Shown one piece after another: positions 27,392 through 47,104 of a stretch of 64,000 nt of DNA. Where the stretch lies: contig JBEKMQ010000002.1 of NCBI GenBank assembly GCA_050008435.1, forward strand, positions 175,929 through 239,928, written 5' to 3'. The notes below the pieces were generated by a model. That model searched no databases, was not told the origin of the DNA, and was given only the letters and a program-made list of their open reading frames with translations. Each line of letters starts with the position of its first letter. The stretch's first letter is position 1. This stretch comes from Candidatus Bathyarchaeia archaeon (GTDB lineage: Archaea; Thermoproteota; Bathyarchaeia; Bathyarchaeales; Bathycorpusculaceae). The translations under genes were made by a program, and so were the position numbers.

Positions 27392-27988
27392 TTAGTACAA
27401 AGCATTCAGCAGCTTTGAGTGAGTAGTGCCTAGTAACCCTAACTGGTTGCTAGCCTGCCGTACTCCCATCAGAGAGGAGACGCATCCATCACGAGCACAC
27501 GCACTTTCATTGTCATTCAAATGTGTTCTCAGGAAATCAGCAATGATTGGCTTGAGATCAAAAGCGACTTTGATTCGGAGAATTCCCTTCAAGGCAAAGT
27601 ATTTTAGGTCAACTCCTTCACCGAGTTTTAGGTCTTCTGCCCTCTCGGAGATGTTACCCCAGAAGATGTGGCGTTCAACGATCTCGCCCGGCGTATTTTC
27701 AACGACAGTTCTAAACAATCTGAAATCATGAATATCCAAGCCCAGTTCTTCCTTCACTTCCCTCACTGTAGCAAGCTCTGGGCTTTCACCTTTCTCAACT
27801 CTTCCGCCTGGCAATGTCCAACAGCTTGGATATAGAAAGTCATGCTCACACCTGAGCTGCATGAGGACTTTTCCTTTAGAATTCACCAAGATAATTCCAG
27901 CAAACCTATTACGTTTCAAGCGCGCGCTTAAACGACTGATATCTGGATTGGAGTTTCTTCCACAAGCCATAAAAAAGCTGCAAAGCAA
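27392..27988 (-). CDS. NUDIX hydrolase
   Basis: Nudix box GGRVEKGESPELATVREVKEELGL. The N-terminal 30 aa are non-homologous and are encoded across the palindrome at 27919-27928. Confidence 0.8.
   Translation of the reverse strand: MLCSFFMACGRNSNPDISRLSARLKRNRFAGIILVNSKGKVLMQLRCEHDFLYPSCWTLPGGRVEKGESPELATVREVKEELGLDIHDFRLFRTVVENTPGEIVERHIFWGNISERAEDLKLGEGVDLKYFALKGILRIKVAFDLKPIIADFLRTHLNDNESACARDGCVSSLMGVRQASNQLGLLGTTHSKLLNALY
27919..27928. repeat. exact palindrome AGCGCGCGCT
   Basis: Flanked to give AAGCGCGCGCTT. It lies in the non-homologous 5-prime part of the Nudix ORF. Confidence 0.95.
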
Positions 27989-28014
27989 AACTATGAAGTA
28001 TGTGAGGTATTTGT

Positions 28015-28326
28015 TTGGATAAAGAAGCGGGTCGTATAAAGATCACGGTGCTCAAACGGTTTGACACTAAAGAGGTATTCAAAGATCCTCCAGTCAAGGC
28101 AAAGTATAGTGGTCCATGTCCCATCTTCAAAGAAGGACAGGTATTCCAAGTTGAGGATAGCATGCCAAACGGGTTTTGCCCTTACGCTTGGGACACAATC
28201 TTCCCGATGATTATGACGCTCAAGTTCGGTGGCAACTGTTCTGAGTGGTATGAGGAACCTGGAGTTGCAGTAGCGTGTTGCCCAGACGGATTAAGACCAG
28301 TGATCTTCAAGCTAGAGCGAAAATAG
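28015..28326 (+). CDS. TIGR04076-family protein
   Basis: GPCPIFKEG..F......PNGFCPYAW..I.P......GG.......V.CCPDGLRPVIF pattern. Confidence 0.55.
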   Translation: MDKEAGRIKITVLKRFDTKEVFKDPPVKAKYSGPCPIFKEGQVFQVEDSMPNGFCPYAWDTIFPMIMTLKFGGNCSEWYEEPGVAVACCPDGLRPVIFKLERK

Positions 28327-28740
28327 CCAGGATCCTCTGTATGCTTTCGTAAACCATCAAAACTATAATGCCTAATGGATATCGTCCCTCTGAAGACCTA
28401 GTTCAGGAGGAATCTCCCACACCTTGGCTATTTGCACTATCGTTTCCAGTTGTATTCTTGTTCTACACTTTCGACATATTGCTTTTAAGCTAGTTTTGGC
28501 ATGGCGTTCTATTGGTATTGCTGAGAAATCACACTAACAATAGTGGAGTTCTCCCGTATTCCCGACTGACATAGATATCGCCACTTTCGGCAAGAATAGA
28601 CGGATTAGCCTGATCTAAAAGAATAGAAGGAAATGTCTTCTGGTTTTGTTCTCTACCAAAGATGAAAGAATCATTGGATTTAGTTGTCATTCAGAAAAGA
28701 CAAGAAAAGAAAGTGGCGGAATGATATGTTTTTGCTGTTC

Positions 28741-29073
28741 TTAACTCTTCTTTGGCTTTCTGAGCATCGAGCCTATGTAGAGTCCGATGAAACTTGCCAC
28801 CACCACAATGAAAACATTTAAGGCTATCGTGTCAGTCAGTGCATATTCCTCAACGCTCCACCATTGAGATGTCGTCAGCGTCTTTCCTGGGTTGGCGTTT
28901 TGGTAGGTTTCTTTAACTAATGGAGTCCAGTCCCCCTGTGCTGGAATTGCTGCTGCATAGAAAAGCATCAGTAGAGCGGCTCCCAAGACGACTATCTTGG
29001 CTATGGTTTTTATGCCAGCTTCTTCCCAGATTTTCCTGGAGAAGATTGCGCCGACGATCAATCCACTAAGCAA
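28741..29073 (-). CDS. small membrane protein, possibly 5-prime truncated
   Basis: TTG start. The hydrophobic reading frame stays open upstream to about 29200 without a start codon. Confidence 0.4.
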   Translation of the reverse strand: MLSGLIVGAIFSRKIWEEAGIKTIAKIVVLGAALLMLFYAAAIPAQGDWTPLVKETYQNANPGKTLTTSQWWSVEEYALTDTIALNVFIVVVASFIGLYIGSMLRKPKKS

Positions 29074-29204
29074 GAAGGAGATTATCCCGACAACCGTGGG
29101 TCCCCAATCCCTGTAAAGTTTTACCCCACGCGGGTGCGGTGGAACACCAATGCTAAATAGATTCTCTGGTTTACATAGAAAGAGTCTGGGGGCATGGGAG
29201 CACT

Positions 29205-30269
29205 ATGATACTGATCAAAGAGGCCATTGAGGACGATAATGATGCTCTTAATGAACTTCAGAAGAAATGTCCGATGGGCACCAGCATGGTTATTGGAATC
29301 GACAGCTCGCCCGACTATTTTGCTCGGTCTAGACCATTCAAAGAGTGGCAGGTTCTCGTGGCAGTTGAGAATAGTACAATAGTTGGTTCTGCCGCATACG
29401 CAATAATCGATACCTGCGTTAAAGGAAAGCATCTTAAAACTGCCTTTGAGTATGGTTTCATCGTTGACCCTCTTCACAGGCGAAAAGGAATTGGGGAAAA
29501 ACTTCAAAGGCACATCGAGCAGTTCGTGCTGGAGAAGGATGTCAAGCTAGTGCACCTAGACATAATCGAGGACAACTTACCTTCGATAGGCTTATTTTCC
29601 AAAATGGGATTCAAGAAAGTGAAAGACTGCACGATATTTTCCTTGTTGCCTTACAAGAAGCAGAGAACTACAGGAGAGGCAAACATAAGGAGTATGAACG
29701 AGACTGACGTTGATGATGTGACAAACCTGATTAACGAGATGTACCGTGACTACGATTTCTTCGCTCCTTTCCAACCTAAGGACTTCCTAGAGTATCTCAA
29801 GCGAATGCCATACTTCGAGTTTCACAATATCCTTGTTCTTGAAGACAATGGTGGCATTAAAGCCTGTCTGGGATACTGGGATCACAGCAAAGTCAGAAGA
29901 TACATTGTAGAGAAAATGAACCGGACATTGAGAATACAGACATACCTGATGAAGTTGATTGGCTTATTTGCCGAAATGCCTAGAATTCCCAAGCCTGGCG
30001 AACCACTGCTGAACTACAACTTGACCGCTATGGCTTGCAGGAACTCAGAAAGCATGACAGAATTGATAAAACATACAGTCAACATTGCTCTAGAGAATAA
30101 GGTCAACCAGATCATCGTAGCGGTAGACCCAAGGAACCCGATAGCTGCGAATCTCTCACAGTTCAGACATACTGAGATGAAACTGCATTTCTTCACCAAA
30201 TCGCTCAGACAGGAAAGATTACCGAACCTTGGAGAAAGGAAACTCTACATCGACGCAAATCAAATGTAA
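29205..30269 (+). CDS. GNAT family N-acetyltransferase with C-terminal extension
   Basis: VDPLHRRKGIGEKLQRHIE motif A. 354 aa. Confidence 0.7.
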   Translation: MILIKEAIEDDNDALNELQKKCPMGTSMVIGIDSSPDYFARSRPFKEWQVLVAVENSTIVGSAAYAIIDTCVKGKHLKTAFEYGFIVDPLHRRKGIGEKLQRHIEQFVLEKDVKLVHLDIIEDNLPSIGLFSKMGFKKVKDCTIFSLLPYKKQRTTGEANIRSMNETDVDDVTNLINEMYRDYDFFAPFQPKDFLEYLKRMPYFEFHNILVLEDNGGIKACLGYWDHSKVRRYIVEKMNRTLRIQTYLMKLIGLFAEMPRIPKPGEPLLNYNLTAMACRNSESMTELIKHTVNIALENKVNQIIVAVDPRNPIAANLSQFRHTEMKLHFFTKSLRQERLPNLGERKLYIDANQM

Positions 30270-30305
30270 CTATCGTTCACATTCACCCTGCAGCATACGG
30301 CGATT

Positions 30306-30350
30306 TTGGTTGGTTGGATAAAACTTTACCCCAAACCAAACCAACCAACA
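30306..30350 (+). repeat. palindromic element E1 (centre ATAAAACTTTACC)
   Basis: TTGGTTGGTTGG-ATAAAACTTTACC(30318-30330)-CCAAACCAAACCAACCAACA, 37 nt after the stop at 30269. Confidence 0.9.
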
Positions 30351-30589
30351 ACGACGGACTGGCTGAGCAGGGAAAACAGGCTTAGCAGGGTGTATACACG
30401 ATTCAGGCTATACAGTAGTCAGTATCAGTATAAGGTATACTATAGTCGAAATCGAGTATACGCCTCAGCAGGGCACGCGCGCGCAAATGTCGTCGTCGGC
30501 GGGTAAGGTTTTTTCAAACCAACTTTACAAAGGGGAAAAATTCTTATTTAATCAATCTAAGCTAATGGAAGTTAGGAAGCTAAAGACAG

Positions 30590-46611: not shown

Positions 46612-46661
46612 AGCAACACCAACTCCTGCAACCCTTCACTCAGAGCAATTCTTAACAACAC

Positions 46662-46678
46662 CCATATATAATTTTAGG
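46662..46678 (-). promoter_or_regulatory. putative BRE/TATA for eif5a
   Basis: The minus strand reads CCTAAAATTATATATGG, about 50 nt upstream of the start. Confidence 0.45.
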
Positions 46679-46701
46679 CACTAATTTTCGGCACCTTTAC
46701 G

Positions 46702-46769
46702 GGTCCTCTCGCGTTGAGAGACCGATCCGCGGGCGCTTCACTTCTTCGGCCAACGGCCTTGCTCGGATC
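46702..46769. other. GC-rich multi-stem intergenic segment (possible small structured RNA)
   Basis: GGTC(C)TCTC-GCGTT-GAGAGACC (46702-46723). GATCCG (46724-46729) pairs with CGGATC (46764-46769) and encloses GGCC-AAC-GGCC (46748-58). Strand and function are unknown. Confidence 0.25.
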
Positions 46770-46809
46770 GAAGGGAGTTTGACTGGAGCCAAACGTCTAG
46801 TTTTCCTCA

Positions 46810-46819
46810 AGCGCGCGCT
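46810..46819. repeat. exact palindrome AGCGCGCGCT
   Basis: Flanked to give AAGCGCGCGCTT. It lies between eif5a and the 46839 ORF. Confidence 0.95.
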
Positions 46820-46838
46820 TTTTGCTTCAAACAAAAGG

Positions 46839-47054
46839 ATGTTTTCAATGAGTAGGGGTTTCAGGGATTTGTTAGATGTTAGATGTAAAACGGAAAAGCA
46901 AGGTTACACCTTTAGAGGAACGGTTGAGGAGAGCGAGATCATAACATTCTGCGCTGAAGAGAATGTGGTTTATGATGATTTCGTCAGGGCTAAGATCACA
47001 AATGAGATTTTATATCTGTATCCTCAGCTCTTCGATGTCTTCGACATGGGATAG
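46839..47054 (+). CDS. hypothetical protein
   Basis: 71 aa from the ATG at 46839. The longer ORF from 46779 would read through the AGCGCGCGCT palindrome. Confidence 0.3.
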   Translation: MFSMSRGFRDLLDVRCKTEKQGYTFRGTVEESEIITFCAEENVVYDDFVRAKITNEILYLYPQLFDVFDMG

Positions 47055-47104
47055 CTTGTCAGCGCGCGTGCTCCGTATACAAAAGCATCAACGAATATCA
47101 CTAT

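Follow-up and report, generated by a model that had tools for sequence, protein, structure and literature searches.

Short tracts of alternating G and C, of the form A(GC)3-5T, punctuate the intergenic DNA of a variable gene island in the genome of a Candidatus Bathyarchaeia archaeon (assembly GCA_050008435.1, contig JBEKMQ010000002.1, positions 175,929 to 239,928). The window analyzed here is that whole stretch of 64,000 nt; gene calls were based on codon usage and checked against those publicly available for the source contig. It encodes the archaeal markers Pus10, with an archaeal THUMP domain, SRP54, and DUF2070, and neither a tRNA nor an Rfam family at the gathering threshold was found in it. 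Genes among the tracts include those for Nudix, flavodoxin, serpin, radical-SAM, PRC-barrel, and HTH_45 proteins and the remains of a catalase gene. We found that the tracts very probably are points at which gene modules have been broken and joined. Related loci are referred to by number (L005 and so on) where they need to be told apart.

The flanks of the variable island (18487 to 46198), namely 9.4 to 18.5 kb and 46.2 kb onward, lie only 0.4 to 0.6 kb apart in four related populations (L094 and L097 to L099). The distance from aIF5A to SRP54 is 1.5 to 6 kb in nearly all of 80 Bathyarchaeia species; a second set of loci took as its anchor the gene for NAD kinase, immediately to the right of the island. 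Because the flanks are adjacent in relatives, 18.5 to 46.2 kb of the window is an insertion-prone variable region. To its right, in the aIF5A/NAD-kinase promoter region, lies a decayed integrated element of 870 bp (46679 to 47546), which is absent in L094, L095, L097, and L098 and whose insertion point is TATA-like (between catatata and gattaa). What is left of it is the C-terminal part of a rolling-circle Rep together with some pieces of a tyrosine integrase (amino acids 1 to 89 and 192 to 228). An intact version of ~6 kb occupies the same spot between aIF5A and NAD kinase in L096 (3700 to 9900); it encodes a gpII-type rolling-circle Rep, a VTT-domain protein, a dCMP-deaminase/kinase, and a tyrosine integrase, and eight (CG)3-5 tracts lie between its genes. 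Rep was found by tblastn only in L096, L093, and the window, and no Rep homologue was found in viral contigs. Our results show that this Bathyarchaeia genome, which contains a hypervariable island, has taken in mobile-element DNA.

Abundance and placement of the tracts

The original prediction, made from the letters of the window, had reported five exact copies of the palindrome AGCGCGCGCT, at 27919, 31098, 32762, 45170, and 46810, and had judged this number far beyond chance. Both points hold: the copies are exact, and dinucleotide-preserving shuffles give 0.05 expected copies, with five reached in 0 of 100 shuffles. GCGCGC has 49 overlapping matches in the window compared with 11.7 expected, and 36 of the 49 lie within 27.9 to 47.1 kb. 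The further (CG)n cores that had been listed all exist, some of them 1 to 2 nt away from where they had been placed; the corrected positions are 41652 to 41661 (not 41651 to 41660), 44152 to 44159, 45721 to 45727, and 47062 to 47068, and AGGCGCGCGCCT starts at 41686. Two cores had been overlooked, GCGCGC at 23680 and CGCGCG at 35624, both within coding sequences (CDSs). The density of (CG)n runs with n of at least 3 is 3.0/kb in the intergenic DNA of the island (19 runs in 6.3 kb) and 0.31/kb in its CDSs, and in the rest of the window it is 0.28/kb in intergenic DNA (2 runs in 7.1 kb) and 0.21/kb in CDSs. In the 80 species, sampled as 20-kb loci around SRP54, the same runs occur at 0.25/kb over 226 kb of intergenic DNA and at 0.12/kb in coding DNA. 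An equal frequency inside and outside the island had been named in advance as the mark of a general intergenic signal; the values of 0.28/kb and 0.25/kb outside, against 3.0/kb inside, go the other way, and the low value across the 80 species indicates that the motif is not a lineage-wide intergenic signal. The mildly richer intergenic DNA of the relatives is what could be said for chance, base composition, or a genome-wide promoter or terminator consensus as the source of the tracts. That explanation is refuted by the shuffle counts and by a density tenfold over other intergenic DNA, at an observed/expected CpG ratio in the island (0.87) that is not raised, and we give it practically no credence. 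Local clusters of tracts do occur in a few species (L028, L041, L056, L083, and L011), and successive genes of L041 are bracketed by them too. For the window, the claim that nearly every island gene is bracketed was too strong, as only 6 of the 30 genes called in 26.8 to 47.1 kb have a tract within 220 nt on both sides, while 16 have one on one side and 8 on neither.

The tracts lie 15 to 120 nt upstream of starts or 1 to 45 nt past stops, in tandem, divergent, and convergent gaps alike. Intergenic tracts share the palindromic consensus tA(GC)nTa, with A at −1 in 45 of 82 (55%; p = 3e-6) and T at +1 in 39 of 82 (48%; p = 1e-3), and this preference is confined to them, coding tracts being without it. 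A fixed-distance promoter element was rejected because the distance to a TATA-like sequence ranges from 2 to 55 nt and tracts also stand in convergent gaps; an intrinsic-terminator-like signal found no support, no consistent T-run following the tracts past stops. Tract lengths are unchanged between strains of 97 to 99.8% identity, which excludes a hypermutable microsatellite; the indels that separate L005/L006 from the window are all in T runs, and the near-identical strains L003 to L008 (~100% identity) were uninformative for comparison. VIPR GGY/NN repeats, as far as the accessible part of their description goes (PMC13142463), differ in repeat period and were set aside. As alternating (CG)n of at least 6 to 8 nt, the tracts fit the sequence criterion for Z-DNA-capable DNA, and alternating purine-pyrimidine content overall showed no specific enrichment in the island. 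Other low-complexity runs in its intergenic DNA (37160 to 37300, 39820 to 39860, and 40780 to 40830) consist of (GT)n/(CA)n, GTAG, GACGACT, and GACA repeats. Decay of tracts by C-to-T change was seen twice, as AGCGCGTGCT (reverse-complemented L189, 3950 to 3960, equivalent to 31098 to 31107 of the window) and as GTGCGTGCG (L096 ~4700, equivalent to 47062 to 47068), the pattern expected from deamination of methylated cytosine.

Module ends at the tracts

The flavodoxin cassette (30485 to 31064, plus strand; gene 30590 to 31063) is present or absent between two copies of a tract. In the window its left copy is CGCGCGCGC followed by AAAT (30476 to 30484) and its right copy is CGCGCGCGCG followed by AAAT (31065 to 31074), so that the filled site reads cagcagggca, CGCGCGCGC, aaat, the 589-bp flavodoxin cassette, CGCGCGCGCG, and aaatcaaac, with CGCGCGCGC(G)AAAT as the repeat unit. 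L189, one of the comparison contigs found through variants of the island serpin, has an empty site with a single (CG)5: it reads cagcagggca, CGCGCGCGCG, and aaatcaaac, its left flank being window 30446 to 30475 and its right flank the window from 31075 onward. Presence or absence of a cassette precisely at the joint, as in integrons, is thus what this site displays. Homologues of the flavodoxin gene with 63 to 70% identity in other contexts, including L009 and L011, carry (CG)3 after the stop in three of three cases and an upstream tract in two of three. The L011 tract (9449) stands directly upstream of a TATA-like box.

The right-hand flavodoxin tract is also the left end of a module comprising the catalase fragment and the serpin gene (31064 to 32771, minus strand), which is 97.2% identical in L189, where it stands in an unrelated context. 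The block shared with L189 begins at the (CG)5 at 31065 and ends on the last base of AGCGCGCGCT at 32762 to 32771. A serpin submodule (31329 to 32772) recurs from tract to tract, at 97.9% identity, in a third context in L192 and L193; its left end is the CGCGCGC at 31329 to 31335, which forms a close pair, with a 16-nt spacer, with ATCGCGCGCGAT (31350 to 31361), 21 nt past the serpin stop. At its right end, the tract at 32762 has three different right-hand neighbors in three genomes: in the window it is followed by the radical-SAM gene, in L189 by the PRC-barrel module, and in L192 by other DNA, beyond which comes a hairpin element. Within the larger module, the AGCGCGCGCT copy at 31098 to 31107 abuts the 5' truncation of the catalase C-terminal fragment (31140 to 31307; Catalase-rel). 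Catalase homology had been said to start at this palindrome, and it does: the frame reads up to ...SAR, and the catalase letters come after the tract. Between the serpin and radical-SAM promoters, adjoining the tract at 32762, are repeated palindromes of the form GTTCTAG-N3-5-CTAGAAC (32715 to 32762), which look operator-like and are conserved in L189 and L192.

The PRC-barrel module (40874 to 41234, plus strand; gene 40934 to 41230) shares 84% identity with L189, where it is joined directly to the serpin module through a (CG)4. The tract upstream of the gene in the window is CGCGCGCG (40833 to 40840), and the L189 (CG)4 sits 34 nt nearer the same promoter. Downstream, homology to L189 ends at the left edge of GCGCGCGC (41235 to 41242), which is also the outer arm of an inverted repeat (41223 to 41245 and 41685 to 41707) that brackets the gene at 41349 to 41546. 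AGGCGCGCGCCT (41686 to 41697) is its opposite outer arm, and the inner partners of the gene are GCGCGCG on the left (41297 to 41303, reading GCGCGCGC in L005) and (GC)5 on the right (41652 to 41661).

Truncated genes and replaced segments end at tracts as well. In the 870-bp remnant, strong homology to the full-length L096 Rep starts at the AGCGCGCGCT copy at 46810 to 46819; Rep homology upstream of that tract was rejected, being a weak tblastn extension. The GCGCGCG at 47062 to 47068 lies 7 nt past the stop of the Rep fragment and corresponds to GCGCGCGCG in L096b and to GTGCGTGCG in the full-length copy (L096a). Truncation of the integrase exactly at that tract was unsupported, the end of the remnant being ~62 nt off. 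L096b, a second Rep copy, is cut ~45 nt further in than that of the window, likewise at a (CG)5. Fragments that start at a tract thus comprise the C-termini of catalase and Rep in the window, a Cas1 gene in viral contig L181, and an Hsp20-like open reading frame (ORF) in L093. At 27919 to 27928, homology to strain L191 ends at the left edge of AGCGCGCGCT (breakpoint 27920); Nudix homology had been placed at this palindrome too, and the domain in fact starts ~12 nt away from the tract. The segment that replaces 40771 to 42210 in L093 and L191 ends in (CG)4.5 where homology resumes (junction at 42211), and that replacing 44840 to 45836 in L093 ends in (CG)5 where homology resumes (junction at 45837).

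In one case a tract stands where part of a core gene has been lost. At 2213 to 2222 of L014, CGCGCGCGCG has taken the place of 147 nt within a core gene for a SAM-methyltransferase; the stretch is intact in L094 (15126 to 15273), to which L014 is 98 to 99% identical, and the equivalent in the window is ~54130 to 54280, in the gene at 53832 to 54605. Since both L094 and the window retain the 147 nt, the (CG)5 arose newly in L014, and this single case shows that a tract can arise anew at a deletion. When the ends of recent blocks were counted by hand, 10 of 22 fell at a tract (P = 2e-5 even with 10% of positions allowed as targets); an automatic all-against-all count placed 9 of 29 block ends at a tract and 4 at the core of the hairpin described below. 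The proposal that the palindromes mark junctions of recombination, insertion, or deletion, and are not ordinary promoters or terminators, is therefore supported by the coincidence with breakpoints and by the restriction of high tract density to the island, and the association with synteny and indel breakpoints for which it had called is found in exact module ends, an empty and a filled site, and genes truncated at tracts.

These exact ends bear on the possibility that the tracts were selected as boundary elements, such as insulators, Z-DNA supercoil sinks, or sites for a dimeric protein, that delimit accessory genes in the manner of the promoters and terminators of phage "morons." Breakpoints would then coincide with them because only intact expression units survive. 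Such a role is consistent with the closeness of tracts to starts and stops in every type of gap, with the two tracts that abut a BRE/TATA-like element (38657 in the window and 9449 in L011), with the retention of the post-stop tract by flavodoxin homologues whose spacer is unalignable, with palindromic tA...Ta flanks that would suit a dimeric binder or an easy B-Z junction, and with the presence of an HTH_45 gene in the island. Nevertheless, the variable distance to the TATA-like box and the irregular T-runs noted above speak against it, tracts abut promoterless gene fragments, one replaces part of a core gene in L014, and most genes outside islands are without them. Homology that ends to the nucleotide within a tract in several independent contexts would not result from selection on expression units alone. 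We consider this explanation distinctly unlikely, though a regulatory role may be an added function.

As possible mechanisms, the original prediction had offered BssHII-like cleavage and a Z-DNA hotspot. A second possibility is the shuffling of restriction fragments, in which a BssHII-like GCGCGC endonuclease of host or virus would leave CGCG overhangs that are religated, with fill-in or slippage producing (GC)4-5. Module ends that lie inside the tract, with interchangeable neighbors, would be expected of it, and by our own reasoning so would lengths of 6, 8, and 10 nt, from religation, a 2-nt register shift, and fill-in of G^CGCGC; the C-to-T changes in L189 and L096a would fit cytosine methylation. 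We regard it as very unlikely because GCGCGC is not avoided in coding DNA, where counts outside the island match the shuffle expectation. No restriction or cytosine-methylase gene was seen beside the tracts, and the sole methylase-like gene in the window (8650 to 9972) has UPF0020 and N6_N4 domains. Religation also cannot create a tract where none existed, and a preference for flanking A and T is unexpected for a plain 6-bp site.

The remaining tracts of the island region lie in various settings. GCGCGC at 26716 to 26721 stands in the divergent gap between HAD and GNAT genes, and homology to the nearest species (L013) stops there. A (GC)5 at 33694 to 33703 is inside a doubtful ORF of 116 to 126 amino acids without a family match. 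GCGCGCG occurs between the beta-CASP and SDR genes, which converge on a gap of 18 nt (36231 to 36237), 2 nt upstream of the BRE/TATA-like AAAAGCTAATATAT ahead of the gene at 38746 to 39738 (38657 to 38663), in the long gap upstream of the HTH_45 gene, where it is conserved in L093 and L191 (42337 to 42343), and upstream of the Hsp20-like ORF at 45790 to 46032 (45721 to 45727), an ORF that in L093 is cut on its 5' side beside a (CG)5. GCGCGCGC at 44152 to 44159 lies in a divergent gap, and the AGCGCGCGCT copy at 45170 to 45179 is 5 nt from the left arm of a hairpin element.

Several repeats and one split gene were noted in passing. At its left edge the island has a 1.2-kb stretch without a gene call, in which two units of ~50 nt resemble each other (18520 to 18800; gaaaacacgc...cc(t)cc...ggtcggttttt(t)gg(g)ttt). 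A perfect 33-nt tandem duplication occupies the start of the window (23 to 89), and a 54-nt tandem repeat with 75% identity (34542 to 34655) lies within a small lysine/glutamate-rich ORF (34476 to 34667). The gene at 37461 to 38452 is split into ORFs of 205 and 133 amino acids by a frameshift in a T run at ~38073 and is a single ORF of 330 amino acids in L005; its product has no family match. Two adjacent 330-amino-acid proteins, considered as paralogues, proved to be unrelated.

A hairpin joint and GCGCGC-tipped elements

A hairpin element, absent from the original prediction, forms a second kind of joint in the island. It has a conserved 13-nt loop, ATAAAACTTTACC, with the core AAACTTTACC, and low-complexity arms of GGTT/AACC, GGGTTT/AAACCC, GT/AC, or AAGG/CCTT. 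Ten copies lie in the island, eight of them in one orientation, and further copies are found in L056, L093, L173 to L181, L189, L191, and L192. Many have matched arms (z = −3 to −5.6), and others have mismatched "hybrid" arms, including a reciprocal-looking pair at 40754 and 45198. A degenerate core, GTAAAGTTTTACC (29105 to 29130, minus strand), is the left breakpoint of the GNAT module in comparison with L191, and the right breakpoint of that module falls immediately past the core of the copy at 30298 to 30356 (plus strand), which reads GGTTGGTTGG-ATAAAACTTTACC-CCAAACCAAACC. The copy at 33450 to 33495 (plus strand) overlaps the radical-SAM stop and is 95% identical to an element of viral contig L174. 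Matched arms characterize the copies at 37280 to 37330 (plus strand; −24 kcal/mol, z = −4.4) and 39770 to 39820 (minus strand), and the copy at 40185 to 40235 (plus strand) has GTGTGTG/CACACAC arms. The copy at 40735 to 40780 (plus strand) has hybrid arms, GTGTGTG and CCCAACCC; it is the left-hand breakpoint of a segment that is replaced in both L093 and L191, and the right-hand one (42211) is 9 nt from a copy with matched arms (42160 to 42205, plus strand). A second segment is replaced in L093, its left breakpoint being a core at 44815 to 44850 (plus strand), and the copy at 45186 to 45222 (plus strand), with hybrid arms GGTTGGTTGG and TTCACACAC, is of the type reciprocal to that at 40754. 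Four breakpoints of the island lie right at the hairpin core (29113, 30331, 40770, and 44839), and the hairpin is a junction marker at least as sharp as the tracts.

Both joints are also carried by viruses. Viral contigs L175 and L179, which are 96 to 98% identical, differ by 2.56 kb located between two hairpin elements, with the right breakpoint at the hairpin core and the left just past the arm. The 17-mer of the hairpin occurs in IMG/VR contigs with genes for portal, terminase, capsid, and tail-tube proteins, alongside (CG)n tracts, and the co-occurrence of both motifs in contigs of head-tailed viruses indicates that they mark the mobile-DNA pool of the lineage and not the host chromosome as such. 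The accessory genes among the joints of virus contigs encode Shedu, TIR-domain, and MEDS-domain proteins and a methylase; the defense-type genes at L173 8192 to 10681 and L181 3488 to 7285 comprise a Shedu SduA C-terminal nuclease, a CAP12/Pycsar-type TIR protein, and an Eco57I-like methylase. Read on the opposite strand, the hairpin core (AAAGTTTTATC) is BRE/TATA-like and matches the TATA-like sequence upstream of the L011 flavodoxin gene, but only about half of the copies face a gene. A conserved loop on a variable stem, together with CTTT/A, recalls the nick sites of rolling-circle Rep proteins.

Inverted-repeat elements of ~170 to 330 bp constitute a family that is likewise tipped by tracts; they read GCGCGC-nnGCnTGTTCCTAAAT ... 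ATTTAGGAACAnGCnn-GCGCGC and fall into three subfamilies, with copies in both orientations. They were found at five host loci (L028, L056, L083, L092, and L093) and at six viral-contig loci from five contigs (L179 and L184 to L188), and copies include those at L093 5182 to 5355, L092 9712 to 9885, L056 3433 to 3594, L028 5739 to 5900, L083 6825 to 7128, and L179 8871 to 9100 as well as those in L184 and L186. Their positions are mostly nonorthologous, and one L093 copy is lacking in the window. The arms of the subfamilies show compensating changes (GTTCC/GGAAC, GTTGC/GCAAC, and GTCCC/GGGAC), and matches of the element in Rfam were at chance level only; it could be a miniature inverted-repeat transposable element (MITE) or a structured RNA. 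The idea that solo tracts are decayed arms of such elements was rejected, since true arms score at least 18 bits and solo tracts no more than 0.6, a clean separation. Stand-alone Cas1 genes, with no CRISPR array in view, were found in tract-rich variable segments of L093 (5369 to 6241) and L012 (13178 to 14209), and a Cas1 fragment was found in viral contig L181 (9835 to 10128). The L093 Cas1 gene starts 14 nt past a GCGCGC-tipped element.

A putative cut-and-rejoin process

We propose a model in which the tracts would be the terminal nucleotides of units that are cut out and rejoined, whether single genes, gene groups, or noncoding inverted-repeat elements. A putative trans-acting enzyme would cut within or beside the tract, and because the tract is made of G and C only and is self-complementary, any two cut ends could anneal in either orientation and then be sealed. 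Departure of a unit would leave a single tract of variable length (6 to 11 nt) as a scar, arrival would place one tract on each side of it, and imprecise events would delete neighboring DNA on one side. Such one-sided deletion is consistent with the nested truncations seen in Rep, in the PRC promoter region, where L189 is shorter by 34 nt, and in the Hsp20-like ORF. The A before and T after the tract, often with TA on both sides, may reflect a preferred target or an extended recognition site. Tracts would accumulate where insertions are tolerated, in the intergenic DNA of accessory islands and in viruses, and would be purged from core genes. The same model would account for the tracts that tip the inverted-repeat elements and for the frequent flanking TA. 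Whether the mechanism is a dedicated one of this kind, as opposed to passive microhomology or fragility, we judge to be evenly balanced.

The passive explanation holds that the tracts are hotspots, fragile as Z-DNA or slipped structures and offering the strongest available microhomology of 8 to 10 bp, so that ordinary repair, template switching, or short-homology recombination joins DNA there; modules would spread because tract-flanked genes recombine as intact units. Module ends lie within the tract, and homologous joints differ in length (8, 8, and 9 nt; 9 versus 10 nt). The 13- to 14-nt direct repeats of the flavodoxin cassette are what short-homology deletion or integration would be expected to give, and the only letters common to the Rep junction and the ancestral GCGTTGC are GC. 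For alternating purine-pyrimidine tracts that form Z-DNA, a role as deletion hotspots has been documented (Freund et al. 1989 and Wang et al. 2006, both cited in PMC13174585). What passive joining leaves unexplained is the new 10-nt (CG)5 at a deletion in a gene previously without a tract, the use of tracts as tips of a conserved inverted-repeat family, and the A/T flanks on intergenic and not on coding tracts; the stability of tract lengths between strains also indicates that there is no hypermutability. We regard passive joining as unlikely on balance, though as the most serious of the alternatives.

Several observations weigh against a dedicated cut-and-rejoin mechanism. A GC-only repeat of 8 to 10 bp is the best possible substrate for passive microhomology and could explain the module ends and the empty and filled site. 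Indels without a tract, formed through microhomology, are active in the same island, as comparison with L191 shows ("aga" at 26908/27473 and "agat" at 34906/38196), and neither the island as a whole nor the 870-bp insertion has its ends at tracts. The (CG)5 scar of L014 is a single case in one metagenome assembly, and all of the data are metagenome assemblies. Pfam scans of the island proteins found no intact recombinase, the only traces being the decayed integrase and Rep remnants at 46679 to 47546, and no tract-specific transposase, recombinase, or nuclease was found among the scanned proteins and fetched loci. TA stands on about half of the 12 flanks of tipped elements and is thus a tendency and not a rule. 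Finally, because solo tracts are without arm remnants, their tie to the tipped elements is a putative one.

Comparison with known systems places the tracts among short boundary repeats that mediate modular gene shuffling, with which they are best filed. Judged by layout, the nearest analogue is the PeSL of T4-type phages, "mobile regulatory cassettes" that flank accessory genes in hyperplastic regions and carry indel breakpoints (Arbiol et al. 2010, PMC2839356; Comeau et al. 2014, PMC4122927). Like PeSLs, the tracts are short conserved flanks of small accessory genes, insertion, deletion, and replacement breakpoints fall in the motif, modules are swapped whole, and the motifs are found in head-tailed viruses. 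However, a PeSL is ~50 to 70 nt long, combines an early promoter with a terminator stem-loop, and recombines by homology, whereas the tract is a GC-only palindrome of 6 to 11 nt without promoter or terminator consensus, is found in archaeal chromosomal islands too, and can appear as a new scar. Integrons have been reported in Archaea (Ghaly et al. 2022, PMC9668308), and the island resembles them in its arrays of single genes, a recombination site at gene boundaries, empty and filled sites, and the gathering of accessory genes; the variable complementary arms of the hairpin recall a structure-defined site. In contrast to integrons, the island has no integron integrase and no attI or common promoter, and its genes have their own promoters and both orientations. 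No Phage_integrase domain was found by Pfam in the island proteins, which gave only a weak N-terminal SAM-like match (E = 8e-4) in the product of 38746 to 39738; the only integrase pieces are decayed ones at 47060 to 47482. An attC site, moreover, spans 55 to 140 bp with R''/L''/L'/R' boxes (RYYYAAC ... GTTRRRY), in contrast to a tract of 6 to 11 nt, and the hairpin conserves its loop rather than R and L boxes, with GTTGGAT and ATCCAAC present in the wrong order.

Transposons of the IS630/Tc1-mariner type and their MITEs share with the tipped elements inverted repeats with conserved ends, frequent TA flanks, and copies at nonorthologous sites; a solo tA(GC)nTa resembles two rejoined tips, and the one-sided deletions are anchored at the tract. 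As in composite transposons, any two ends could mobilize the DNA between them. The likeness stops at the transposase, as no long element with these ends and no transposase domain was found among the scanned proteins and ~2 Mb of fetched loci, at the inconsistent TA flanks, and at an excess of solo tracts over full elements of ~8:1. We know of no IS630/Tc1-mariner family with tips of alternating GC alone. The repetitive extragenic palindromes (REPs) of bacteria and the mosaic elements they form (BIMEs) are similarly short, GC-rich, intergenic palindromes, often just past stops and between convergent genes; REPs differ in being imperfect hairpins of 20 to 40 nt that are genome-wide and linked to RAYT transposases, while the tracts are too short to form a hairpin alone and are confined to variable islands and viruses. 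The (CG)n and (CA)n hotspots of Z-DNA studies (Freund et al. 1989; Wang et al. 2006) likewise pair alternating GC tracts with deletions and breakpoints; those hotspots, as cited in PMC13174585, are experimental inserts or mammalian sequences that get lost, whereas the tracts here persist, multiply, and are reusable. No description of (CG)n joints in archaeal genomes or viruses was found in the literature searched, and a paper on Bathyarchaeia viruses (PMC10541130) leaves such repeats unmentioned. The tracts appear to be the joints of a gene-shuffling process that has had no earlier description.

A more far-reaching possibility, which we consider improbable, is an archaeal gene-cassette exchange shared by Bathyarchaeia and their head-tailed viruses that would do without an integron integrase and use two universal joints, A(GC)nT and the AAACTTTACC hairpin. 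A(GC)nT would then be duplicated around an inserted gene-sized unit, much as a CRISPR repeat is around a new spacer, and stand-alone Cas1 would be the candidate integrase, given its place beside a tipped element in L093, in the island of L012, and as a fragment in L181. Casposases make duplications of 14 to 15 bp, and the 13- to 14-nt repeat of the flavodoxin cassette would be close to that size. The hairpin could similarly be likened to a Rep nick site, a gpII-type Rep being present in L096 and a fragment of it in the window.

Beyond a small number of cultured models, the ways in which archaea and their viruses assemble and exchange accessory genes are poorly understood. Sediments and peat contain Bathyarchaeia in abundance, and no genome analyzed here comes from culture. 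The joints supply a searchable rule, that of gene units delimited by A(GC)3-5T tracts and the AAACTTTACC hairpin, common to chromosomal islands and to contigs of head-tailed viruses. With it, metagenome-assembled genomes could be searched for variable islands and the remnants of proviruses, cassettes could be delimited to the nucleotide, and any responsible enzyme could be sought by co-occurrence. If no enzyme is involved, the tracts would be a clear example from nature of how non-B-DNA or microhomology tracts shape the architecture of a genome. Should there be a dedicated enzyme, they would represent a new class of modular gene mobility, and self-complementary GC joints might serve as tools; were the exchange of cassettes through two universal joints to prove true, archaea would have a counterpart to integrons that relies on other enzymes.

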